A stretch of DNA of 64,000 bases. Origin: Mobula hypostoma (Eukaryota). Numbering within the stretch: the first letter of the stretch is position 1; each line of letters begins with the position of its first letter. Of the stretch, positions 9,711 to 53,100 are shown piece by piece. A program made the position numbers and the translations under genes. The notes beneath the pieces were generated by a model. It saw only the letters and a list, made by a program, of their open reading frames with translations, made no database searches and was not told the origin of the DNA. The stretch lies in the NCBI RefSeq assembly GCF_963921235.1, contig NC_086107.1:112780001-112844000 (forward strand). Reading direction: 5' to 3'.

Positions 9711-10856
9711 CTTCATCCCCTCCATCAGATTTCCAAAAAGTCCATGAGCCAATGAACACTAGCTCATTATTTTTGCTTTCTTTTTGTACTAATTTTTTGT
9801 ATTTCTTATTGTGACTTAGAGCATTTTTAAGTACTGCACTGCTGCTACAAAAGTTCATGACACATATCAGTGATAATAAACTTGATTCTGATTAGACTCC
9901 TGACACTACATGACTGTATAAAGAGCATCACTGATCACCACAGCTAGACTCCGAGTCCACGGAAATCTACAGTCAACCATAATAGAGCTTGCCTTCTGCC
10001 CAGCAAACACTGGGGCAGCATCAACTCCAACCTGGACACTGTGCCACACTGCCCCGGTGGAGCACAGCGGCTCTGCCACCTCCCCCCTGGCAGTTGTAAG
10101 TAGGCGACACTGCTGCTTCAGACCTACATTTTGCTACAAGCAAGGCTATGCAGCTCCCCGCCATCTGCCAAAAAAAGCAGTGAATCGGGCTTGCAGCATT
10201 CTACATTAACAATGTCAAAAAGGGTCTTGCGATGACAAGAAAAGCGACTAAGACGGTTACTCGTTATTGGAATGCACGCCTCCTTCACTCACCGACTCCT
10301 CCGAAGCCTCACTGATGCGTGCTGTAGCACGATCTGCACCGTCCATCCTCTTCAGTTTCTCCACCAATGAGCAACTCACTGCTGCGGTCGACCTGCAGTA
10401 CTTTAAGTTTTTGCATATTGCATATTATCTGAAGGTGGTGACAATTGTCCTTGCTTTTCAGTGTGGAAATTGTCCTGTTGGTTGGTTTAAACCAATAGCC
10501 GTCATTTCTATAACGCTTCAAACACGAGTTGCAACAACCGTTTCAGGCAATACATTCAGAATTAAGACTTCTTCTGAAGCCCATCACGCCCCCTGGGGCA
10601 TAGGCTGTTGACAGCAGCCCGCCGGAGTCCTCTGACCTGGGCCGGTAGAAGGCTGATTAGCCGCTGTGGCTTCTGCTTTCACCACACGACTTCATACATC
10701 TCCTAGGCAAAGATTCTTCCTCTCCCAGCGATGAGGCCTTTGGAGCTTCCATTGGCATTTCTGTAGTTCTGCGTCTTTACAGGATAGCCCTAGGCCCAGA
10801 AATGAAACTTGCTGAATTATAACACAAACACGAGGAATGCAGATGCTGGAATTTCA

Positions 10857-11061
10857 AGCAACACACATCAAAGTTGCTGGTGAACGCAGCAGGCCAGGCA
10901 GCATCTCCAGGAAGAGGTACAGTCGACGTTTCAGGACTAACTGAAAGAAGAACTAGTAAGACTTAGTAAGACGAAGGGTCTCGGCCCGAAACGTCGACTG
11001 TACCTCTTCCTAGAGATGCTGCCTGGCCTGCTGCGTTCACCAGCAACTTTTGTGTGTTGCT
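10857..11061. repeat. Fold-back element made of two inverted PLE family-1 termini
   Basis: Near-perfect ~75-bp inverted arms at 10857-10932 and 10988-11061. Similar fold-backs at ~7320-7465, 24048-24243, 30622-30742, 31240-31408, 44445-44625, 48395-48618, 58915-59088 and 60292-60523. Confidence 0.85.
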
Positions 11062-11927
11062 GATTTATAAATTAATTTTTCCTCCTTTGGTAAATTATAT
11101 TCAACTTGACTCTAGTAACTCACCAACTTAACAGTGGGAGCAATTTCTTATCAATTACCTGCTGGAGGAACTCAGCAGGTTGAGGAGTATCAGTAGGAGG
11201 AAAGGAATTATTGACTTTTCAGGTTAAAATTCTGCTTCAGGACCAGTGAATTTCTTATCCTGACAAATCCCATCAAATATCTGGGAGCCTCTTCAGTGTC
11301 TCCTTACCTCATCTGCTCTAGATTCTCCCTACTCTCCACCCAAGAATCTCTTCACTAATCACAGATATTTCTGCCAGTCTTTGTTGATGCATCCATGAGG
11401 TAATATACACTTTTTGTAAATCTCCCTTTTGATCCTTTCACACCCTCTCGGAATAAAAAAGCAATGCGGCAGACTGCAACATCGTAACAGCGACTGCTTG
11501 TTGGTCTCCCCGCTTGCTGCGTAATGGGCGACATCCCTCTGTCCCTTGTTAATGAGAGAGGGAGCCTGTGGCACATCAAATTATCGGGTAAACAATGGTT
11601 TTTGTTGGACTGCAGATCATGGTCTCTCTTTGGGGGCTTTGCTGTTGCTTGCTTGGTGGGTGGTGGGAGCTGCTGAAATGGATGGGGAGGGGGAGGTTGA
11701 TGCTTTATTGCTGCCTGTGTATGGGGGGGGGAGACGGGGCTTAATCTTTTTCTTTCTGTCATTAATTCTGTGGGGTTCCCTTCTGTTTTTGTGGATGTCT
11801 GTGAGGAGTAAGAATTTCAAGTTGTACACTGTATACATTCTCTGATATTAAATGGAACCATTGAATCACCTCAAGTTGAAAACAAATGTACTCCCCTTCG
11901 TTTGCCAAACAAAATCAAAAAGGATAT

Positions 11928-16438: not shown

Positions 16439-16516
16439 TTGTTGAGGAGATCGTCAGCATCAGGCACAGGCAAAGAAGCATCCTCAGAGCCAGCAGTAGG
16501 CACAGTCGCGACAGCA
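16439..16516 (-). CDS. AP2A1: Hinge exon (~17), AVATVPTAGSEDASLPVPDADDLLN(K)
   Basis: Very long CT tract, cctcag / gtaagg; 78 nt, phase 2-2; resembles AP2A1-specific GPEDIGPPIPEADELLNK. Confidence 0.9.
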
Positions 16517-17297
16517 CTGAGGTAGAGCAAGAGGACAAACAGAGAGAGAGGTAGAGAGAAAAAAAATGACAGAGAAAGAGGCAGAGAGAGAAATTATTAG
16601 AGAGAAATGATGGAGTATAAAGCACAATTCTGTTAACAAGCATCAAATTGTTCGTAATGTATAATTTAAGGTTGAAACTTTAATTGAAGAAGTAGAACTG
16701 TTAATGGTACCAGGAGAAGATTGTTCAAATCAGGTTTAAAAATAAATAAATCCATGCTGGACTATGTTTAATCATATTCCTCAGGATAATTACACACAGG
16801 ATTGACTCTTCTCCTGAGTTTCTACCCCCCCCTACCCCCCCCCCCGCATCCCCAAAGGTGACGACTCTTCCTGCTCCTAAAGCACATCTTCCTCTGTTAG
16901 CTCAACCAGCAACTTGGCGACCAGAGACATCAGGACCATGTACAGTGCTGCCCTCGGTACACACAGGTTACTGGGATGCCTTAGATCCCACATCACCAGG
17001 TTCAGGAACAGTTATTACACTTCAACCACCAGGCACCTGGACCAGTGTGGATACCTTCACTCACCTCAACAATCAGCCAATTCTACAATCTATAAGACTC
17101 ACTTTCAAGGAGTTTCAACAAGTTCAATATTATTTATTGATATTTTTTGTATTTGCTACAATTTGTCTTCTTTTGTACATCGGTTGTTTGTCAGTCTGTG
17201 TGTGTAGCTTTTTATTAATTCTATTGTATTTATTTGTACTAACTGTGAATGCCTGCAAGAAAATGAATCTCAGGGTAGAGTATGGTGACATACATGT

Positions 17298-18341: not shown

Positions 18342-20597
18342 AAACATAGAAACATAGAAACATAGAAAATAGGTGCAGGAGTAGGCCATTCGGCCCTTCG
18401 AGCCTGCACCGCCATTTATTATGATCATGGCTGATCATCCAACTCAGAATCCCGCCCCAGCCTTCCCTCCATACCCCCTGACCCCTGTAGCCACAAGGGC
18501 CATATCTAACTCCCTCTTAAACATAGCCAATGAACTGGCCTCAACAGTTTGCTGTGGCAGAGAATTCCACAGATTCACCACTCTCTGTGTGAAGAAGTTT
18601 TTCCTAATCTCGGTCCTAAAAGGCTTCCCCTCTATCCTCAAACTGTAACCCCTTGTTCTGGACTTCCCCAACATCGGGAACAATCTTCCTGCATCTAGCC
18701 TGTCCAATCCCTTTAGGATCTTATACGTTTCAATCAGATCCCCCCTCAATCTTCTAAATTCCAACGAGTACAAGCCCAGTTCATCCAGTCTTTCTTCATA
18801 TGAAAGTCCTGCCATCCCAGGAATCAATCCAGTGAACCTTCTTTGTACTCCCTCTATGGCAAAGATGTCTTTCCTCAGATTAGGGGACCAAAACTGCACA
18901 CAATACTCCAGGTGTGGTCTCACCAAGGCCTTGTACAACTGCAGTAGTACCTCCCTGCTCCTGTACTCGAATCCTCTCGCTATAAATGCCAGCATACCAT
19001 TCGCCTTTTTCACCGCCTGCTGTACCTGCATGCCCTCTTTCAATGACTGGTGTATAATGACACCCAGGTCTCGTTGCACCTCCCCTTTTCCTAATCGGCC
19101 ACCATTCAGATAATAATCTGTTTTCCTATTTTTGCCACCAAAGTGGATAACTTCACATTTATCCACATTAAATTGCATCTGCCATGAGTTTGCCCACTCA
19201 CCCAACCTATCCAAGTCACCCTGCATCCTCTTAGCATCCTCCTCACTGCTAACACTGCCGCCAAGCTTCGTGTCATCCGGAAACTTGGAGATGCTGCATT
19301 TAATTCCCTCATCCAAGTCATTAATATATATTGTAAACAACTGGGGTCCCAGCACTGAGCCTTGCGGTACCCCACTAGTCACCGCCTGCCATTCTGAAAA
19401 GGTCCCGTTTATTCCCACTCTTTGCTTCCTGTCTGCTAACCAATTCTCCACCCACACCAATACCTTACCCCCAATACCGTGTGCTTTAAGTTTGCACACT
19501 AATCTCCTGTGTGGGACCTTGTCAAAAGCCTTTTGAAAATCCAAATATACCACATCCACTGGTTCTCCCCTATCCACTCTACTAGTTACATCCTCAAAAA
19601 ATTCTATGAGATTCGTCAGACATGATTTTCCTTTCACAAATCCATGCTGACTTTGTCCGATCATTTCTCCGCTTTCCAAATGTGCTGTTATCACATCCTT
19701 GATAACTGACTCCAGCAGTTTCCCCACCACCGACGTTAGGCTAACCGGTCTATAATTCCCTGGTTTCTCTCTCCCTCCTTTTTTAAAAATTGGGGTTACA
19801 TTAGCCACCCTCCAATCCTCAGGAACTAGTCCAGAATCTAACGAGTTTTGAAAAATTATCACTAATGCATCCACTATTTCTTGGGCTACTTCCTTAAGCA
19901 CTCTAGGATGCAGACCATCTGGCCCTGGGGATTTATCTGCCTTCAATCCCTTCAATTTACCTAACACCACTTCCCTACTAACATGTATTTCACTCAGTTC
20001 CTCCATCTCACTGGACCTTCTGTCCCTTACTATTTCTGGAAGATTATTTATGTCCTCCTTAGTGAGGACAGAACCAAAGTAATTATTCAATTGGTCTGCC
20101 ATGTCCTTGCTCCCCATGATCAATTCACCTGTTTCTGTCTGCAGGGGACCTACATTTGTCTTTACCAGTCTTTTCCTTTTTACATATCTATAAAAGCTTT
20201 TACAGTCCGTTTTTATGTTCCCTGCCAGTTTTCTCTCATGATCTTTTTTCCCCTTCCTAATTAAGCCCTTTGTCCTCCTCTGCTGAACTCTGAATTCCTC
20301 CCAGTCCTCAGGTGAGCCACTTTCTCTGGCTAATTTGTATGCTACTTCTTTGGAATTGATACTATCCCTAATTTCTCTTGTCAGCCACGGGTGCACTACC
20401 TTCCTTGATTTATTCTTTTGCCAAACTGGGATGAACAATTGTTGTAGTTCATCCATGCAATCTTTAAATGCTTGCCATTGCATATCCACCGTCAACCCTT
20501 TAAGTGTCATTTGCCAGTCTATCTTAGCTAATTCACGTCTCATAACTTCAAAGTTCCCCTTCTTTAAGTTCAGAACCTTTGTTTCTGAATTAACTAC
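18342..20597 (-). mobile_element. CR1-clade LINE, 5'-truncated, uninterrupted ORF2 RT region and intact 3' tail
   Basis: ORF 18444..20690 has KSPGPDG, YRPVSLTS, YLDFQKAFDKV, GVPQGSVLGP, KFPDD, RPHLEYC; (TTCTATGT)n tail at 18342-18368; no endonuclease domain. Confidence 0.95.
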
Positions 20598-20802
20598 AAT
20601 CACAACAGTCTCAAAGCCCAGTGGGCACAGAAACATCGAACTGAATGAAATAAAAAGCTCAATGCAGAGCCAAGTGACTCTGTCTGACAATCAACAAATT
20701 TAGCTCCATCACAGAGCCTCAGGTGTAAGACAATGTTCATCGGTGATGAGACATCACTTGTCCAGAACTGGAGCTCAATTTTATTCAGACAAAAGGCAAT
20801 CC

Positions 20803-21292
20803 ACACAAAGTGCTGGAGAAACTCAGCACGTCAGGCAGCATCTATGGACATGAACAAACAGTTGATGTTTCAGGCCGAGACCCTTCTTCAGGGCTGAGAA
20901 GGAAGGGAGAAGATGCCAGAATAAAAAGGTGGGGAGAGGGCAAGGTGACAGGTGAAGCCAGGTGGGTGGGAAAGCTCAAGGCCTGGAGAAGGCGGAATCT
21001 GATAGAAGATGACAGTGGACTGTGGGAGATAGGGAAGGAGGGGACCCATGGGGGAAGAAATAGGCAGGTGTGAAGTAGTAAGAGATCAGATTGGAGAATT
21101 TGGGGGGGGGGGGAGGGAGAGAGAGAGAAGAGAAATTAGTTTTCCAGAAGGAGAAATCAATATTTATGCCATCAGGCTACACAAACAGAATACAAGATGT
21201 TTCTCCTCCACCCTGAGAGTGGCCTTGTCTCGGCACAAGAGGAGGCCATGGATCGACATGTTGGAATGGGAACGAGAATTGGAAGTGAGAAA
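20803..21292 (-). mobile_element. Penelope-like element 3' end (family 1): GIY-YIG C-terminal remnant, pyrimidine-rich UTR, degenerate hammerhead
   Basis: HSNMSIHGLLLCRDKATLRVEEKHLVFCL resembles the PLE ORF C-terminus; CTGAAGA-AGGGTCTCGGCCT-GAAA at 20896-20859. Confidence 0.8.
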
Positions 21293-23556
21293 AGAAAAGG
21301 CAGGCAGCATCAAACTGAAAATTATTTGGGCAACATTGAAGCATGCAAATCCCCGATGCACTGTATTCCATTTAATATTGGTTTGGATTAAATCATCCCC
21401 ACACAGAGCCACAGAGAAGCTAGCTTCATTCAAGCCACCTAAAAACATTAGTTCAGTTTGAGCATGTAACAGGACAGGCAAAGAACATTCCCTAGTTGAT
21501 GCACACAAACTAACATGTGACAAATGCGGGAAGCATTACGTGAATCGATGCAAGTTATCCTTTATGTCACCCTGTCAATCTCCAGGCAGTGTCACTCAAG
21601 AGAGTTGAACTAATTTTATTTTGTGTCTGTACGTGCTGGATGGTAACTATGTGTGCTGTGTGTGACTGTATGTAATGTGTTTTACACCTTGGCAGCAGAG
21701 GTACGATGTTTCGTTTAGCTGTATACATGTGTTTGGCTGAATGACAATTAAACTTGGACTTAAGTTGGCCTATCTCCTTACTTCACGCTACATATCTACT
21801 TCAGATTCAGCGACTGGCTTCATAAATCTCACTGCATAATATATAAATCACGTTTATTTTTACTAATTCACTGGCAAGTATTGCCCATCCCTAGGCATAG
21901 AAGAACATCTTGTAGCCGCTCCAGAGGACAGTTAAGAGGCACGAGCATTACCGTGGGCATCAGAGGCAAGGACAACCATTTCCCTCCCTGAACAATTCTA
22001 TAACTTTGCGCAAAAAGATTCGGATAATCTGGCATCCACTGTTTGGACACCCTCTGGTTCACTTGCTAGCCAAGAACATGAACCAGAGGTCCAAGAGAGC
22101 AACTGCGAATGTGCAGCAAGAGCTGGAGCCAGGCCTAGACAGTGGACCAGGAGTTGGGAACCAGGAACACGAAAGGGGTTGCAGCAGGATCTGAGATCCG
22201 GAGCGCTTGCACACCTCCCACTCTGTAAAATGTTCCAATGTCTATAGAATATGCAAAACAGAAAGTGAAATAATGTAAATGAGTAATTGGGCATTAGTAA
22301 CAGTTACAGCCAACAGAACAGGAAATCAGCTTGCACTATCAAAGTTTTACTTAACCACTGACATTTAAAGAAAAAAATTCCAGGTTTATTTAATTTCCTG
22401 AATTTAAATTCCTCAGCTCCTGTGGTAGCTCAGGCTTTGTATACCTGTAACTTGCTTTCTAAGCCTACACAGAGTGGATGTGGAGAGGATGTTTCCTATG
22501 GTAGGGCAGTCTAGGACCAGACGGTACAGCCTCAGAATAGAGGGACGTCCTTTTAGAATGGAGAGGAGGATGAATTTCTTTAGCCAGAAGGTGGTGAATC
22601 TGTGCAATTCATTGCTACAGTTGACTGTCGAGGACAAGTGATTGGACATGTTTAAAGCGGAGGTTGAAAGATTCTTAATTAGAAAGGACATCAAAAGTTA
22701 AGGGGAGAAGGCAGGAGAATGAGGTTGAGAAGGATAACAAATCAGCCATGGAATGGCAGAACAAACTTGATGGGCTGAATGGGCTAATTCTGTTCTATGT
22801 CTTATGCCACCATACCCGAACATATCCTAACTGTACTTGGTTGGCAGCTCCCCCCTCTCTGCTCACCATTAAACCACAGGTGTATTTTTTTGTTTCTTGG
22901 ATTATCACTACACGTAACTGACTCAAAAGGAACATATTAACATGTTCCTGTGAGATTCATTTGCCTGAAATCTTGACAAAAGCTTCAAACTTGAAAGTGA
23001 TAAATTTTCAAGATATGATCGTGGCGTTGTGGGCAGTGATATGTTCTAGTAATTAAGCACTCTAAACAAGAGCAGTTTCTGGATCCTTCCTACCTACTTG
23101 TAACTGCAACAGCCTAAATAAAATACAGTAATTTATTATTTTTAATTTAGAAAAACAGTGCATAGGCCCTTCTGGCCCTTCGAGTTGCAAACCCCGACAA
23201 CCCAGATTTACCCCTAAATGAATCACGGGATAATTTACAATGACCAATTAACTTACTGACCGGTATGGCATTGGACTGTGGGAGGAAACAGGAGCACAAG
23301 GAGCAAACTCATGCATTCCACAGGGAGGACATACAGAGAATGTCAGGACTGAACTCTGACACCTCCACTGTAATAGCATTGCGCTAACCACCATGTTATT
23401 GTGGCGCTCGTGGTATAAAGTCACTCGGGAGTAACCAATATTTCAATTTGGGGGCCTGGACACAGCTTCAGAGCGGATTGTTTGGGGGGTGGGGTGGGGT
23501 GAGCGGGGATGGAGGGATCTGAACAGTCCAGGTTTATTCAGCATTACGTAGCTTAC

Positions 23557-23616
23557 TCTGCACAGAGGGCTGCATCCACCAACGAGGCAGGGCTCTCACC
23601 CGGCAGATCCAGGCTT
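23557..23616 (-). CDS. AP2A1: Cassette hinge exon (~16), (R)SLDLPGESPASLVDAALCA(D), homologous to the neuronal AP2A1 insert
   Basis: Long pyrimidine tract, GAGCAG|AAG tandem acceptor, gtaagc donor; 60 nt, phase 2-2; resembles mammalian [22 protein letters not shown]. Confidence 0.8.
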
Positions 23617-27999: not shown

Positions 28000-29577
28000 A
28001 TAAAGGCGCAGGGGATCTAGGGTGAATTGTAAACATGGATTGAGAACAGGCTTCTGCATAGAAGATGGAACGCCGTTTGCTCTGGCTGGAGGTCCGTGAC
28101 TGGCGATGTTCTACAAGGACTGGTGCTGGTACTTTGTTGTTTGCAATATATACTCAGTGGCCATTTGATAAGCCTGCTCACTATTGCAAATATCTAATCA
28201 ATGTGGCAGCATCTCGATGCATAAAAGCATGCAGACATGGTCAAGAGGTTCTGTTGTTCAGACCAAACATCACAATGGGGAAGAAATGTGATCTAAGTGA
28301 CCTTGGCAGGGTGGTTTGAGTATCTCAAACTCCTGATCTCCTGGGATTTTCACGCACAACATTCACTGGAGTTTACAGAGAATGGTGTGAGAAACATAAA
28401 ACAGCAAGCGAGAGGCAGTTGTGTGGGTGAAAAAGCCTTAATAATGAGAGAGAATGGCCAGACTGGTTCAAGCTGACAGGAGGGCAACAGAAACTCAAAT
28501 AACCACACACTACAACAGTGGCGTGCCCAAGAGCATCTCTGAACGGACTACGTGACAAAACTTGAGTGGATGGGCTACAGCAGCAAAAGACCACACCAGG
28601 TTCCACTCCTTTACCCAACATATTGGCCACTGAGTGTACAGCACAAAATGTAGAAGGGTGGATCAGTAAGTTTGTAGATGACAGTAAGATTGATGGAGTT
28701 GTGGACAATGTAAGAGACTACCAAAGAACATGGCACGGTATAGATCAGTTACAGATATGGGCAGAGAAGTGGCAGATAGAATTTAATTTAGACAAGTGTG
28801 AGGCGTTGCACTTTGTGAGGCCAAATGAAAGGACAAAGTATACAGATAATGATAGACCCCTTAATAGCTTTAAGGCACAGAAGGTTCTTGGGAGGCAGAT
28901 TGATAGTTTACTGAAAGTGGTTTTGCAAGAGGACAAGGTGAAATTGGCAGGTCTGGTATGGCTGCCTTTGTTGGTAGGGATGTTGAGTATAAAAACACAG
29001 GATTCATGTTGTAATGATACAAAACTTCAGTCAGACCGCACTTGTCTGCAGCTCTGGTCACCCCATCACAGGACAGATGTGGAGATGAAGAGACTGTGGA
29101 GAGGGCGCAGAAGTAGTTTACCAGGACACTACCCAGATCGGAGGTTATGAGCTAAAAGATCGGACAAACTTGAGTTGTTCTCTCTAGAGCAAGGGTTTCC
29201 AGCCTAGGGTCCATGGCCCCCTCAGTTAATGGTAGGGGTCTGTGGCATAAAAAAGATTGGAAAGTCCTGCTCCAGAGCATTGAAGACCGAGAGGAGAACT
29301 GATAAAGGTTTCCAAAATTCCGACAGGCATAAAGAGGGTCAGCAGTCAGAATCTTTTCCCCCAGGGTAGAAATATCAAATACTACAGGACAAGCTTGAGG
29401 CTGGATTGGGGGATTGGACACTTAAAGGCAACATGAAGAACAAAGTTGTTTTTTTTTTTAAAAAAAGCACAATAATAGATGCCTGGAATGGGTTACCAGA
29501 AAGTAGTAGAAACAGACAGTTTGGTGGTGCTTTAAGTGACTTTTAGATAGGCACATAAAAATACAAGGAATGGAGAG
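28000..29577 (+). mobile_element. Degraded CR1 LINE fragment interrupted by a Tc1 derivative
   Basis: LFAIY...ISKFVDDSKI, WQIEFNLDKCEALHF (ORF 28566..29150). Confidence 0.85.
28151..28636 (+). mobile_element. Second copy of the deleted Tc1 element, nested in CR1
   Basis: TA flanks, same TIRs, MGKKCDLSD. Confidence 0.9.
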
Positions 29578-29643
29578 ACAAGCAACACACATCAAAGTTG
29601 CTGGTGAACGCAGCAGGCCAGGCAGCATCTCTAGGAAGAGGTA

Positions 29644-29681
29644 CAGTCGATGTTTCAGGCCGAGACCCTTCGTCAGGACTA
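29644..29681 (-). ncRNA. Minimal type I hammerhead ribozyme motif (PLE family 1), best-preserved copy
   Basis: UAGUC-CUGACGA-AGGGUCUCGGCCU-GAAA-CAUC|GACUG: core boxes intact and stem I pairs; ACGU changed to ACAU (likely CpG decay). Confidence 0.72.
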
Positions 29682-30941
29682 ACTGAAGGAAGAGTTAGCA
29701 AGAGATTTGAAAGTGGAATGGAGAGATATGGATGATTACCAGAAGAAAGACCCGTGCCTGTACTTGCTGTATTTTAAATGAATGCGGGGGGGGGGGGGAG
29801 AGGGAGAAGGGGAAGGGTCTCATTGAAACCCATCTAATATTGAAAGGCCTGGATAGAGTTGACGTGGAAAGGATGTTTCCTATTGGGGGGAGGGCTCTAG
29901 GGTCAGAGGACACAGCCTCAGAATAGACGGATGTCCCTTTAGAACAGAGATGAGGTGGAATTTCTTCAGTCAGAGGGTGGCAAAACTGTAGAATTCATTA
30001 CCACAGATGACCGTGGAAGCCAAGTCATTGAGTACATTTAAAACAGAGGTTGATAAGTTCTTGATTAGTAAGGGCATCAAGGTTTACGAGGAGAAGGCAG
30101 GAGAATGGGGTTGAGATGGATAATAAATCAGCCATGATGAAATTGCAGAGCAGTCTCAATGGGCTGAATGGCCTAATTCTGCTCCTGTCTTATGGTCTTA
30201 TTTAGTACACACTGGCATCAAGATCAGCACAACATAGTGGACCTATGGCCTGTCTTGTGCTATAATGCTCTATGCTTTAAATTGCATTGTCTGAATCCAT
30301 TAACGTCTTGTTCAAGAAATGCTCCCAACCCAAGAGATTCACCCCCATCATGTCACCTTTCCAAACTACAAAAAAGGTTGCCATGGCAACAGTACAATGT
30401 AAAAGACCGTGTCAGCGTAGTTACTCCATCCTTTGCGACAAGGGTGCAATACCAGCCAAGGGACATTACTTGTCTGGGCCTGAGACTGGATGACCAAACA
30501 TTAACAGTTCTCACTCTGGCCACAGGGTGGGGCACTTTGCGGTAAAACTACTACACAAAGGTGCAGACAAAACCTGCCCTGTGCACAGCTACTCCAGGAG
30601 TTCTGCAGATGCTGGAAGTTCAAGCAACACACATCAAAGTTGCTGGTGAACGCAGCAGGCCAGGCAGCATCTCTAGGAAGAGGTACAGTCGACGTTTTGG
30701 GCCGAGCCTGGCCTGCTGCGTTCACCAGCAACTTTGATGTGCGTTACCTGTGCACAGCTAACCATTTTAACTGGAGAGTGAAGCACAGTTTTGCCAGCAA
30801 TGAAAGGTTTGAAACAGGTTAAAAAAAACAACGCAGAGCTCTCTTTAATTCTCACCTGTGGTTTATATAGAAAATTTTTTAAAAAATTAATTCTGATCAT
30901 GTCCATATCTCTGCTTTGCAAGCGTCTACAGACGCTGGAAA

Positions 30942-32258: not shown

Positions 32259-32617
32259 CCTCATGCCTGAGGACTCACTTTCATTCTAAATGCCATTTGA
32301 TTACTTTTATTGTTTGCACAATTTGTTGTTTTCCCTCTTTCTCTTTGCACATTGGGTATTTGTCTTTTTATTTTAAATGGGTTCTTTTGGGTTTCCTGTT
32401 TTGTGGCTGCCTGTAAGGAGACGAATCTCAAGGTTGTACTTTGAACTTTGACAGTAAACTTAACTTTGACGTATGTATACGCTGATCAAACAGCCCGAAA
32501 TTGGCTTTGTACAGATTCATAGTTACACTGGCTGGATTGAAATTAAGTAACACCAGTGGCAAAAGCCCCTCCCAAACCAACAAGAGATTGGAAATTGACT
32601 GCATGCTCTACACTTAC

Positions 32618-32757
32618 CGGGAGAAATTGTCCTCAGCTCCTGGTGCCAGAGTCCCAGTGGTGGGCACAGTATCGGAAAATACATCCACCAGCAGACTGCC
32701 TCCACCAGCAGGAGCACTCTTCAAGCCAAGCAAGTCAGCAGAAGGGGAAGGCGTGGA
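32618..32757 (-). CDS. AP2A1: AP-2 alpha hinge exon (~15), [46 protein letters not shown]
   Basis: ctgtag / gtaagt; 140 nt, phase 0-2; carries the conserved DLLGL and LLVDVF hinge motifs. Confidence 0.94.
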
Positions 32758-42157: not shown

Positions 42158-44097
42158 TCTGGGCCTCTACTCACTGGAATCAAGAAAAATGAGGGGTGAC
42201 CCCACTGAAATCTATTGAATGTTGAAAGGCCTCGATAGAGTGCATGCGGAGAGGGGGTTTCCTACGGTGGGAGAGTCTAAGACCAGAGGACACTGCATGG
42301 AACGGAGATGAGGATGAATTTCTTCGGGTACATAAGTGTAAAAGAGGCGAGGGAGGACACTGGACTGTTGGAAAATGATGCTGGAGAGGTAGTAATGGGC
42401 AACAACGAAATGGTGGATGAACTGAATAAGTATTTTGCATCAGTCTTCACTGTGGAAGATGCTAGCAGTATGGTGGAAGTTCCAGGTGTCAGGGGGCATG
42501 AAGTGTGTGAAGTTACCATAGATAGAAGGTTCTTGGGAAACTGAAAGGTCTGAAGGTAGATAAGTCACCTGGACCAGATGATGTACACCCCAGGGTTCTG
42601 AAAGAGGTGGCTGAAGAGATCGTGGAGGCATTAGTAACGATCTTTCAATAATCACTAGATTCTGGAATGGTTCCAGAAGACTGGAAAATTGCAAATGTCA
42701 CTCCATTCTTCCAGAAGGGAAAAAGACAGAAGAAAGGAAACTATAGGCCGGATAGTCTGACCTCTGTGGTTGGAATAATGTTGGGAGTTGATTATTAAGG
42801 ATGGAATCTCAGGGTACTTAGAGGCACATGATAAAATAGGCCGCAGTCAGCGCTGTTTCCTCAAGGGAAAATTTTGCCCAACAAATCTGTTAGAACAAGC
42901 GGGATAGACAAAGGAGAATCGGTTGATACTGTGCAATTGGATTTTCAGAAGTGCCACACATGAGACCGCTTAACAAACTACGAGCCGATGGTGTTACAGG
43001 AAAGATTCTAGCATGAATAAAGCAGTAGCTGATTGGCAGGAGGCAAATAGTGGGAATAAAGGGGGCCTTTTCTGGTTGGCTGCTGGTGACTAGTGGTGTT
43101 CCACAGGGGTCTGCACTGGGACAGCTTCTTTTTCACGTTATATGCCAATGATTTGGATGATGGAATTAATAACTTTGTTGCAAAGTTTGTAGATGATATG
43201 AAGATAGTTAAGAGGCAGGTAGTTTTGAGGAAGTAGAGAGGCTACAGAAGGACTCAGACAGATTAGGAGAACAGGCAAGGAAGTGGCCGATGGAATACAG
43301 TGTCGGGAAGTGCATGGTCATGCACTTTGGTAGAAGAAATTAAAGGGTTGACTATTTTCTAGATGGAGAGAAAACACAAGAACTGAGACATAAAGGGACT
43401 TGGGAATCCTTGCGCAGGATTTCCTAAAAGTTAATTTGCAGGTCGAGTCTGTGGTGAGAAAGGCAAATACATATGTTAGCATTTATTTCAAGAGGACTAG
43501 AATATCAAAAGCTAGGATGTAATACTGAAACTTTATAAAACACTGGTGAGGCCTCACTTGGAGTATTGCGAGCAAGTCTGGGCCCCTTATCTTGGAAAGG
43601 ATGTGCTAAAACTGGATGGTTCAAGGGAGGTTCACAAAAATGATTCCAGGATTGAACGGCTTGTCCGAAAAGAGCATCTGATTGCTCCAGCCCTGTATTC
43701 ACTAGAATTCAGAAGAATGAGGGGTGACCTCATTGAAATCTATCAAATTAGGCAAGGCCTCAATAGAGTGCATGTGGACAGGACACTTCCTTTGGTGGGA
43801 GAGTTTAAGACCAGAGGACACAGCCTCAGAACAGGGGAGTCTTTTTAGAATGGAGACGAGGGGGAGTTTCTTTAGCCAGAGGGTGGTGAATCTGTGGAAT
43901 TCTTTGCCATAGGCAACTGTGGATGGCCAAGTCATTGGGTATATTTAAGGCAAAGGTTGATAGATTCTTGATTTGTCAGGGCATGAAGGGATATGCGGAG
44001 AGGCGGGAGATTAGGGCAGAGGGGTAAAATAGATCAGCCATGATGAAATGGCGATGGGCCAAATGACTTAATTCTGCTCCTATATCTTATGGCATTT
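42158..44097 (+). mobile_element. Degraded CR1 LINE sequence (composite) nested in a SINE
   Basis: ELNKYFASVFT, KSPGPD, RPHLEYC, YSLEFRRMRGD and FFSQRVVNLWNSLP remnants plus CR1 3' end. Confidence 0.9.
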
Positions 44098-47000
44098 TAG
44101 ATTAGTAGGTTAATTGGTCACATGGGTGTAACTGGGTAGTGCAGGCTCTTAGGTTTGGAGGGGTCTGTTACCGTCCTGTGTCTCTAAAATAAAAAATAAA
44201 TAAGCTGCTAGCAACTGCCATAAGCACAAAATGATGTTATAAAAATCAGAATGGTATGGCAAAGAAACGAGTCCTTCAGCCCAGCATATCTATGCCAACC
44301 TTTATGTCTACCTAGAGAATTGGAATTTGGTATTATTGTCAGATGTACTGAGATACAGTGAAAAGTTTGTCTTGCTTACTGTTCATACAGATCAGATCAT
44401 TACACAGTGCATTGAGGTAGAACAAGGTAAAACAATAACAATGCAGACACTAGAGTCTGTAGATACTGAAATCTGGAGCAACACTCAAAATGGTGTGAGG
44501 AACCCAGCAGATCAGGCAGCATCTATGCAAGGAAATGGACTGAAGAAGGGTCTCGTCCTGAAAACTCGATGGTCTATTTCCCTTTGTCGATATTGCCTAA
44601 TCTACTAAGTTCCTCTAGCATTTTGGAGAATTTTGCCGATCTTCATAAGTCTTATTTCAAAGGGCATGTGGTTGTGCATTTGACGGGTAAATGTGCAAGG
44701 CAGCTGGAGTGACAGTAATCCCAGGACTCAGTCAGGGGTAGCTGATCGAGAAGCGATCGCTAGGAAGTGTTAAAGGGCCACTGCACATATTATTCCCACA
44801 GGATGCATTTGCCAGGGGTGAGGTCAGCTCGATCATGGGCACTAGCCTCCCCAACATCCAGAACATCTTCCAGGGAGTGATGCCTCAATAAACATGGCCA
44901 CCATCATGAAAGACGCTCATCACCCAGGCCATACCCGTCTCTTCTCATTGCTACCAGCAGGGAGAAGGTGCAGAAGCCTGAAGGAACACACTCAACAATT
45001 CAGGAACAGCCTCTTCCCTTCTGCCATCAGATTTCTGAATGGACATTGAACCTGTGAACATTGCTTCACTACTTCCCCTCCCACTTTGTGCAATACTTAT
45101 TTAACTTAACTTTTTTAATATATATATTGACTGTAATTCAGTTTTTGTTATGAATTGCATTGTACTGTTGCCGCTGAACAACAAATTTCACAAAATTAAA
45201 TCGTTCACGATCGAAGAAGGGTTCTGCCTGATACACAGGACAATGGGAACTGGCACTACAGCATCAACATAGTAACACTGGACCAGAACTTTCTGTTAAT
45301 CAGACCATAAGACATGGGAGCACAATTAGGCCATTTGGCCTATCAGGTGTGCTCCGCATTCTAGCATGACTGATTTATTACCCATCTCAGCCCCATTCTC
45401 CTGCCTTCTCCCTGTAACCTTTGACACCCTTACTAATCAAGAATCTCTCAATCTCCGCTTTAAATATACCCAATGACTTGGCCTCCACAGCCAAGTTCAC
45501 CTACGATCTCTTTCTGTTTCATAGGTGAACATGTATACTGGGTGAGGACAAAACGCCACCAATGTCTCTCTAGGTGCTGTGTAAAGCAACACAATATTAT
45601 CACAATCGTTAATTAGCCACTCCTCCAACAGGACCACAACCTCGTCACTGGGTTTGGAGGCTTGTGTGCCTCAATGACCCAGAGAGCTATGCTGGCTGGA
45701 GTCAGAGCTTTGTGCTTTGACTCTTGGTGGGGTCACCCATGCCAAACAGGTCAAAGGGTAGAGGCCAGACTAAGAGTGGAGCATCCGTCCCCCAGTTCTG
45801 GGGGTTCAGCTCAGGGCTAACAACCCTGATAGGCAAAACAAAATTGTTACGGAAACGGCAATGAAGCACCCTTCTACATTGGAATGTGACAGTATTCCTG
45901 AGTCTCCACCCGGGACTTGCATGACCAACAGCAGTAAAAACCGAGAGGAAGCTACTGGCACGATGAAGAAATCAGAATCAGGTTTAATATCACGGGCACA
46001 CTCGTGAAATTTGTTGTCTTTGTGACAGCAGTATGTTGCAATACACAAGAGAAAAACTGAATTATCATATATTATATTTAATATATACAGTAAATATATA
46101 TATATATATATATAAAATAATTAAATTAAAAAGTAGTGCAAAAATAGAAATAAAAGAAAGTAGTGAGGTAGTGTTCATGGGTTCAATGTCAGAGGGGAAG
46201 AAGCTGTTCCTGAATCGCTGAGTGTGTGCCTTCAGGCTTCTGCACCTCCTTCCTGATGGTAGCAATGGGAAGAGGGCATGTCCTGGGTGATGGGGATCCT
46301 TAACGATAGACACCACCTTTTTGAGGCGTTGCTCCTTGAAGATGTCCTGGATACTACAGACATGCCCACAGTGCCCATGATGGAGCTGACCAAGTTTACA
46401 ACTCTGCAGTTTATTTTGATCCTGTGCAATAGCCCTCCCCTGCCCTCCATACCAGCTGGCGATGCAGCCAGTTAGAATGCTCTCTATTGTACACCAGTAG
46501 AAGCCCTGAACTAGAGATGGAGAACCTTCACTGCTGTCCTAAATGCCACCAGCGTAATGGGCAGCAAGTTAGTTAGCCAATATAAACTGAAATAGGGAAA
46601 AATCTAAACAACTTGCACGTCAGCCATTACACTCCTTGTGTGGTGATCACTGGCGATAGGAAAAAAACCAATTGCTCCGTGATGTTGTGGCAATAGGCTT
46701 CCCACATAAAAACAAAAACAGTGATGTGGGGAAACAAAATATAGATGAGTCACCATCACTAGAGAAATTTTGCAGCATGTACCCTTGTTCACAATAAGGA
46801 GAAAGAGATGCAAAATAATTGACTGCCAAAGTGGAAACCAGAGTGGACAATCTAGCTATGGGACACAGATCATGACTTGGGTTTGGAAGCAAAGCACCGC
46901 AGATGCTGGAAATCTGAAATAAAAACAAAAACTCACGACAGAAACTCGAGAGAAGTAAGAGCACTTAAGATAATTTGAAGGGTAGTACTAACACCCCCAA

Positions 47001-51426: not shown

Positions 51427-53100
51427 AAAAATAGGTGCAGGAGTAGGCTATTTGGCCCTTCGAGCCTGCACCGCCATTCAGTATGATCATGGCTGATCAT
51501 CCAACTCAGAACCCTGTACCTGCCTTTTCTCCATACCCCCTGATTCCTTTAGCCACAAGGGCCTTATCTAACTCCCTCTTAAATATAGCCAATGAACTGG
51601 CCTCAACTGTTTCCTGTGGCAGAGAATTCCACAGCTTCACCACTCTCTGTGTGAAGAAGTTTTTCCTCATCTCGGTCCTAAACGGCTTCCCTTCTATCCT
51701 TAAACTGTGACCCCTTGTTCTGGACTTCCCCAACATCGGGAACAATCTTCCTGCATCTAGCCTGTCCAATCCTTTTAGGATTTTATACATTTCAATAACA
51801 GCCCCCCTCAATCTTCTAAATTCCAGAGAGTATAAAAGTCCTATGGAAGTCATATGAAAGTCCTGCCATCCCAGGAATCAATCTGGTGAACCTTCTTTGT
51901 TCTCCCTCTATGGCAAGGATGTCTTTCCTCAGATTAGGGTACCAAAATTGCACACAATACTCCAGGTGTGGTCTCACCAAGGCCTTGTACAACTGCAGTA
52001 GTACCTCCCTGTTCCTGCACTCGAACCCTCTTGCTATGAATGCCAGCATACCATTCGCCTTTTTCAGTGCCTGCTGTAACTGCATGCCCACTTTCAATGA
52101 CTGGTGTATAATGACACCCAGATCACATTGCACCTCCCCTTTTCCTAATCAGCCACCATTCAGATAATAATCTGTTTTCCTATTTTTGCCACCAAAGTGG
52201 ATAACTTCACATTTATCCACATTAAATTGCATCTGTCATGAATTTGCCCACACACTTAACCTATCCAAGTCACCCTGCATCCTCTTAGCATCCTCCTCAC
52301 AGCTAACACTGCCACCCAGCTTCGTGTCATCCGCAAACTTGGAGATGCTGCATTTAATTCCCTCTTCCAAGTCATTAATATATATTGTAAACAACTGGGG
52401 TCCCAGCACTGAGCCGTGTGGTACCCCACCAGTCACTGCCTGCCATTCTGAAAAGGTCCCATTTATTCCCACTCTTTGCTTCCTGTCTGACAACCAGTTC
52501 TCTATCCACATCAATACCATACCCCTAATACTGTGTGTTTTAAGTTTGCACACTAATCTCCTGTGTGGGACCTTGTCAAAAGCCTTTTGAAAATCCAAAT
52601 ATACCACATCCACTGGTTCTCCTCTATCCACTCTACTAGTTACATCCTCAAAAAATTCTATGAGATTCGCCAGACATGATTTTCCTTTCACAAATCCATG
52701 CTGACTTTGTCCGATGATTTCACCGCTTTCCAAATGTGCTGTTATCACATCTTTCATAATTGACTCCAGCAGTTTCCCCACCACCGATGTCAGGCTTACC
52801 AGTCTATAATTGCCCGGTTTCTCTCTCCCTCCTTTTTTAAAAAGTGGGGTTACATTAGCCACCCTCCAATCCTCAGGAACTAATCCAGAATCTAAAGAGT
52901 TTTGAAAAATTATCACTAATGCATCCACTATTTCTTGGGCTACTTCCTTAAGCACGCTGGGATGCAGACCATCTGGCCCTGGGGATTTATCTGCCTTTAA
53001 TCCCTTCAATTTACCTAACACCACTTCCCTACTAACATGCATTTCCCCTCAGTTCCTCCATCTCACTGGGCCCTCGGTCCCCTACTACTTCCGGAAGATT
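51427..53100 (-). mobile_element. CR1-clade LINE, second copy of the same young family, truncated and frameshifted
   Basis: Visibly near-identical to 18367-20045; ORFs 52236..53042 (FADD), 51816..52133 and 51506..51853. Confidence 0.95.

Follow-up and report, generated by a model that had tools for sequence, protein, structure and literature searches.

A probable CpG-decayed passenger copy of a Penelope-like element hammerhead in an AP-2 alpha intron

The segment at positions 29644–29681 (minus strand) of the window, the whole 64-kb stretch of DNA that was analysed, is very probably a pseudo-LTR minimal type I hammerhead of a Neptune-type Penelope-like element (PLE), carried as a passenger on a 136-nt insertion, decayed at a CpG and most likely inert. 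The minimal hammerheads of PLEs are a kind known since 2014, and the flagged copy itself is of little importance. The family to which it belongs is useful material for the question of cutting in vivo, on which PMC4209133 describes low activity and PMC11167929 describes cleavage that is protein-assisted and dispensable in vitro.

The motif and the insertion that carries it

From 29681 to 29644 the minus strand carries, sense to the AP-2 alpha-adaptin gene, a stem I of 5 bp with one G-U pair (5' strand UAGUC at 29681–29677, 3' strand GACUG at 29648–29644), a CUGACGA box that begins at 29676 and is followed by a bulged, extra A, a stem II, and a GAAA box at 29656–29653, after which come C-A-U-C and then GACUG. 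The predicted cut site lies between 29649 and 29648. Positions within the hammerhead are numbered by the usual convention. The earlier note had read this segment as a minimal type I hammerhead of a PLE, and the core boxes and stem I found at these positions bear that reading out. The stem II that it drew is present, but is better described as 4 bp (GGGU/GCCU) closing a CUCG tetraloop. Its composite consensus string fits the older subfamilies of the repeat, but is not present at 29644–29681 itself, which has the young-subfamily features of a U-G closing pair and CCU. As had been noticed, the stem III remnant at 29653–29650 reads ACAU where the family has ACGU: a G-to-A lesion at a CpG (29651, minus strand, position 16.2) disrupts the dimer palindrome and leaves AUC in place of GUC. 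Of 56 young copies, 6 have this A at 16.2.

With a profile made from six of the window copies, 25 matches are obtained in the window, 14 on the minus (sense) and 11 on the plus (antisense) strand, and 21 of the 25 overlap the ribozyme region. The repeat thus recurs as the earlier note had said, but its "roughly a dozen" copies was a slight undercount. A hammerhead descriptor made of the core boxes, a stem II of at least 3 bp and an NUH site is satisfied at three places in the 64 kb, and only 29644–29681 also has stem I. The ACGU palindrome is kept at none of the three and none of the 25 profile matches is intact, which agrees with the statement that the window holds no perfect copy. In 40 Markov-simulated 64-kb sequences the descriptor lacking stem I was satisfied by chance at a rate of 0.1 per window, and once a stem I of at least 4 bp was required the rate fell to 0.

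Descriptor and Rfam searches had both been proposed as checks. The former finds the motif together with stem I; the latter, run on the window at E up to 10, returned nine matches and no hammerhead among them. The Rfam matches to mir-5681, mir-2 and mir-1288 are inverted PLE arms, and a reading as microRNA precursors was rejected. The Rfam null, together with little covariation, would suit a chance resemblance to a hammerhead inside a repeat. Such a coincidence is extremely improbable, since the published minimal motif is found, with all its elements, where PLEs carry it and the controls gave 0, and it is largely refuted by the pseudo-LTR position and the N7-only variation described below.

The motif sits in an insertion at 29579–29714 (minus strand), a young Neptune-type PLE that is 5'-truncated down to its 3' end. 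Its 136 nt are 96% identical over 130 nt to a full-length relative (L064+L065) and 97% identical to the young-subfamily majority. It stops 70 nt past the cut site, at the short end without the 30-nt tail, and is flanked by 12-nt target-site duplications (left copy 29567–29578, right copy 29715–29726, plus strand). A script search for the flanking DNA among the fetched loci gave no copies, and a setting within a LINE fragment was not borne out.

The earlier note had linked the motif to PLEs through a GIY-YIG remnant in the window. The remnant is real: at about 21306–21140 it matches a PLE GIY-YIG C-terminus from a natural full ORF (57% over 47 aa, E 8e-16, frameshifted), and a Pfam search of the remnant alone gave no match at E up to 1. 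However, it belongs to an older, separate PLE insertion 8 kb from the motif, at 20796–21306 (minus strand), which comprises the frameshifted GIY-YIG C-terminus, a 3' UTR and a decayed hammerhead. The ribozyme copy of this older insertion, at 20895–20796, lies ~240 nt downstream of the remnant, and its hammerhead (20891–20868, minus strand) has a broken stem I. A single element joining the remnant and the motif was rejected, the older copy being 73–78% identical to the young element as against 96% for the insertion that carries the motif. The motif is tied to PLEs because full-length relatives carry it, and not because of the GIY-YIG remnant.

The Penelope-like element family

The closest genomic matches of the repeat have a common 3' end and varying 5' ends. 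The full-length relative L064+L065 is a partial tandem in which a truncated copy is followed by a unit with a frameshifted ORF of ~3 kb encoding RT and GIY-YIG; its two hammerheads lie 3,522 nt apart (one 3.5-kb unit), and a 13-nt repeat flanks it. Pfam matches of the ORF to RVT_1 and GIY-YIG are weak, below the cut-off. In the full-length element one motif precedes the ORF start by ~140 nt and the other follows the stop codon by ~310 nt. The first in-frame ATG lies 138 nt past the cut, and the ribozyme is wholly upstream of it. In L064/L065 the ACAU variant is found in the downstream motif copy only. For an independent test of association, 20 of 39 other loci listed for the GIY-YIG remnant alone were fetched. 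The repeat region lies downstream on the same strand at 19 of the 20, with ribozyme sequence included at 18. These loci and L064+L065 uphold the association of the motif with PLE ORFs, on which the earlier note had made its reading depend.

The Neptune clade has been defined by a CX2-5CxxC linker between the RT and a GIY-YIG placed C-terminally (PMC8557442). Upstream of the GIY-YIG core, one of the loci (L019) has the linker CKRNKCYTC (C-X4-C-X2-C), which agrees with this definition. Judged by the linker motif in its translated sequence, the element is a Neptune-type PLE, an assignment limited by the reduced linker that Nematis also has. The likeness to the clade described in PMC8557442 takes in the RT, the C-X4-C-X2-C linker and, C-terminally, a GIY-YIG with two internal cysteines, and that to Neptune EN+ PLEs takes in partial tandems, inverted 5'-truncated copies and a tail at one end only. 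The hallmarks of EN+ PLE insertion are seen here as 5' truncation, inverted copies and a tail of 30–40 nt at a single end. Genomic 3' ends are bimodal, falling at +58 to +78 and +96 to +116 from the cut (near +70 and +101), and correspond to the two RT start sites described in PMC11167929.

Inverted insertions of the element (for example at window positions 10827–11061 and 30595–30745, and at loci L003–L060) consist of two 5'-truncated arms joined head to head. The one at 30595–30745 is a young neighbour of the motif, in whose minus arm ACGUC-GACUG is kept, CUGANGA is absent and AAAA replaces GAAA. In all 14 inverted insertions scored at both ends the 30-nt tail is present at one end and absent from the other, and for 8 of those 14 the search query guaranteed one long end. 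Direct repeats of 10–17 nt, with one mismatch allowed, flank all 14 tested inverted insertions, and three of three solo long-end insertions are without a clear target duplication (6–8 nt). The paired long and short ends are what would be expected if both target strands were primed, with RT starting at two sites; together with the duplications they give genomic support for two internal RT starts, one per target strand.

Several further observations concern related repeats. Both arms of one inverted insertion have ACAU (L016:1632 and 2621), which suggests copying or conversion of a ribozyme that was already broken. At window positions 11243–11159 (minus strand), L030:853–769 and L063:1893–1825 the repeat end has more divergent relatives whose stem II sequences are others, possibly further PLE families that could serve in the study of covariation. 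Outside the PLE matches, the window has nested inverted repeats over ~2.4 kb at 43925–46320.

Cervera and De la Pena (2014, PMC4209133) described minimal hammerheads (min-HHR) in the pseudo-LTRs of metazoan PLEs. The present family shares with them the type I fold, both core boxes, a helix I of 4–5 bp, an extra nucleotide after A9, a palindromic helix III remnant and, in full elements, a pair of copies separated by one unit, and also the occurrence of mostly solitary copies on truncated elements with some close opposite-strand pairs. Unlike the 6–8 bp of the Schistosoma and Drosophila motifs of that paper, helix II here has 4 bp, and the young subfamily differs from the published motif in having G10.1-U11.1, whereas the older subfamilies keep G10.1-C11.1. 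By its boxes, palindrome and pseudo-LTR position, as read from sequence, the repeat family is one of PLE minimal hammerheads, and the copy at 29644–29681 fails on the palindrome. No shark or ray example was met with in the text of PMC4209133 as consulted. The literature search listed no paper devoted to a shark or ray PLE hammerhead, though supplements might contain one.

Non-LTR retrozymes (PMC7229834; bioRxiv 10.64898/2026.07.22.740005) are similar in being described as abundant, PLE-linked type I hammerheads of lower vertebrates. They are short non-coding tandem arrays, whereas 29579–29714 is one truncated end from a coding element, and a retrozyme array was rejected here since this is one 136-nt insertion with a target duplication. 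The bioRxiv study reports retrozymes in one cartilaginous fish and their depletion from Xenopus introns.

The family is abundant. Exact patterns made up of a 3-bp stem I, the two core boxes and ACGUC gave 67,272 matches in the genome, and 53,304 remained when stem II and a 4-bp stem I were added (reversed control 0 for each); the ACAU version of the pattern gave 8,882 (reversed control 1). Over 3.48 Gb the core-intact motifs have a density of ~15–19 per Mb, so that roughly one intact copy would be expected in 64 kb and zero in the window is unremarkable. By published counts, obtained with descriptors that differ from ours, coelacanth has ~4,000 PLE min-HHRs and Xenopus ~9,000 (PMC4209133) vs. 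53,000–67,000 matches here; in axolotl, 126,247 canonical hammerhead motifs were reported with another differing descriptor (PMC7229834).

The comparison of the three subfamilies drew on copies that span the motif, namely 56 from the young subfamily, 17 of the 20 old-B loci and, after filtering on the first box, 15 of the 39 old-A loci. N7 varies among the subfamilies (C, U or A), while the rest of the core is the same in all three when corrected for CpG decay, a correction supported by the prevalence of CA and TG among the departures. Raw majority differences within the 38-nt motif amount to 4, 5 and 2 of 38 in the three subfamily comparisons. After correction they are 3, 3 and 1, as against 29/127, 40/141 and 21/120 in the flanks (p 0.059, 0.009 and 0.028), in comparisons that are non-independent and have the CpG correction made in the motif only. 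The flanks of the subfamilies differ by 13–42%. Conservation of the core above its flanks, a second point on which the earlier reading had been staked, is seen within these limits.

Within the young copies, non-CpG core sites vary at 3/560 vs. 69/3,353 downstream (p 0.01), and CpG sites decay at 7–8% in core and downstream alike. The palindromic CG (15.2–16.2) is present in 44 of 56 young copies, the departures being mostly CpG transitions. The full descriptor is passed at 26/56 young, 1/39 old-A (many of them truncated inside the motif) and 0/20 old-B loci, so that intact motifs drop with age. This pattern of conservation would fit selection on source elements combined with neutral decay of inserted copies. 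Stem covariation is thin: 4 of 17 old-B copies have a double change in stem II, G-C to A-U, probably from one event, and the other changes are single-sided, G-C to G-U. The catalytic G12 lies in a CpG in the older subfamilies and is changed to A in 8/15 and 10/17 copies. With the young C11.1-to-U change this CpG is gone, and all 56 young copies keep G12.

Folding, cleavage and the element life cycle

The modelled active dimer has an energy of −12.7 kcal/mol for an intact pair, −6.9 for the 29644–29681 copy with an intact partner and −3.6 for this copy with itself; the symmetric dimer has two A-C mismatches in its 4-bp helix, and the pairing with an intact partner has one. In native context of 60–300 nt the hammerhead stem probabilities of the copy are 0.0. 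By nearest-neighbour energies even the intact dimer is disfavoured relative to two monomers (−12.7 vs. −23.2). Since the tertiary core is left out of these energies and even the intact dimer comes out unfavourable, they rank copies and do not predict activity. With both core boxes and stem I intact, the catalytic half might in principle act on the GUC of another copy. The copy itself is probably inert. The earlier wording of uncertain activity is too generous for a copy whose palindrome is broken and whose window has no intact partner.

In the young subfamily (for example L021:1961–2004) the C at N7 would let the core box pair with the cleavage triplet, G5-A6-C7-G8 with CGUC, and a self-locked monomer hairpin of −11.6 kcal/mol is predicted. 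This hairpin, the change of G10.1-C11.1 to G-U in 50 of 56 young copies and the low activity even of dimers described in PMC4209133 could be taken to mean that the motif has ceased to work as a ribozyme in this family and is kept as a structural or protein-binding signal by the RT start, or as a self-locked hairpin. We regard this as unlikely: the catalytic letters are invariant in three subfamilies whose N7 is free and whose flanks have diverged, and an Anolis PLE hammerhead did cut when protein was present, with C3/G8 rescue shown (PMC11167929).

According to PMC4209133, monomeric minimal hammerheads did not cleave in vitro and dimers cut weakly, and PMC11167929 reports that the Anolis hammerhead cut only with protein. 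The latter study (Frangieh et al. 2024) concerns the Poseidon element PAc of Anolis carolinensis, which resembles the present element in having a hammerhead near the ORF start and genomic 3' ends at two internal sites ~30 nt apart (the tail), downstream of the cut; the tail of the Anolis element lies between its two internal RT start sites. In contrast to PAc, the ribozyme here is wholly upstream of the first in-frame ATG and the protein has a Neptune-type Cys linker. The same study reports that cleavage was dispensable for insertion in vitro and that no RNA-seq reads ended at the cut, so that any role of the cut in the element life cycle is hypothetical.

A working ribozyme in the source elements remains our preferred reading, and the following sequence of events can be proposed. 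In a tandem element RNA, two hammerheads would pair via the ACGU palindrome and/or be refolded by the RT-endonuclease protein of the element. The paired hammerheads would then cut after GUC, trimming the precursor, and reverse transcription would begin internally, ~70 or 101 nt past the cut. With such an internal start, even the shortest 5'-truncated insertions bring the motif along as a passenger. The copy at 29644–29681 would be one such 136-nt passenger, which later lost its palindrome through CpG decay.

It is a distinctly doubtful, though consequential, proposition that intact sense-strand motifs in introns, if switched on by the element protein or by chance pairing with a neighbour, impose a genome-wide inducible cleavage load on host pre-mRNA. 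If so, intact, not CpG-broken, sense copies would be lost from introns, and the locked monomer hairpin of the young subfamily would be a safety catch. The tens of thousands of intact copies and the thousands broken at one CpG form a built-in control for a test of selection and strand bias.

The host AP-2 alpha gene

That the host gene lies on the minus strand is seen from Pfam adaptin domains, which match frames of that strand, and from a ray AP-2 alpha protein, whose alignment runs through the exons one after another from 61979 to 1359. The motif is within the intron at 32617–23617; the upstream hinge exon (32618–32757, minus strand) ends 2.9 kb ahead of it, and the first hinge cassette exon, of 60 nt (23557–23616, minus strand), follows 6.0 kb after it, so the earlier placement of the motif on the sense strand, in the intron upstream of a cassette hinge exon, was right. 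A second hinge cassette exon of 78 nt lies at about 16440–16517 (minus strand). Going by the annotated isoform lengths of relatives, the two hinge exons would be independent cassettes, their presence or absence explaining the lengths of 929, 950, 955 and 976 aa. NCBI names most cartilaginous-fish orthologues alpha-2. Two relatives are 89–90% identical to six tetrapod alpha-1 proteins vs. 87–88% to five alpha-2 proteins, and the two-cassette hinge resembles that of an amphibian alpha-1. By identity and hinge layout, AP2A1, the name used in the earlier note, appears to be the better call.

Three substrate halves lie on the sense strand of the motif's intron (30695, 24400 and 24158). Together with the sense orientation of the motif, its intact boxes and stem I, and the existence of domesticated intronic hammerheads in amniotes (PMC6155905), they could suggest that the AP-2 alpha pre-mRNA is cut by the copy, or by its catalytic half acting on ACGUC-GACUG at 30695, and that cassette inclusion is tuned in this way. 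We consider this very improbable. The insertion is young, at 97% to its subfamily majority, and is kilobases away from both flanking exons. At most 2 contiguous stem III pairs could form, and the co-fold predicted for the copy with the 30695 arm is not a hammerhead. Cassette isoforms also occur in sharks and a chimaera, so that the cassettes probably predate the insertion, and the window matches have no strand bias (14 sense, 11 antisense). Most likely, the insertion is without effect on AP-2 alpha splicing.

The domesticated RECK-type hammerheads of amniotes (PMC6155905) are similarly type I, intronic and on the sense strand. They are described as canonical and conserved across species, whereas 29644–29681 is a minimal, damaged copy of a young repeat; without helix III and with its palindrome broken, it was rejected as a domesticated ribozyme of this type.

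Two other retroelements were seen within the window. A 748-aa open LINE reverse transcriptase frame (18444–20690, minus strand; Pfam RVT_1 E 1e-32) lies in sense between the cassette exons, and a second LINE reverse transcriptase copy, which is broken, lies near 51500–53050.
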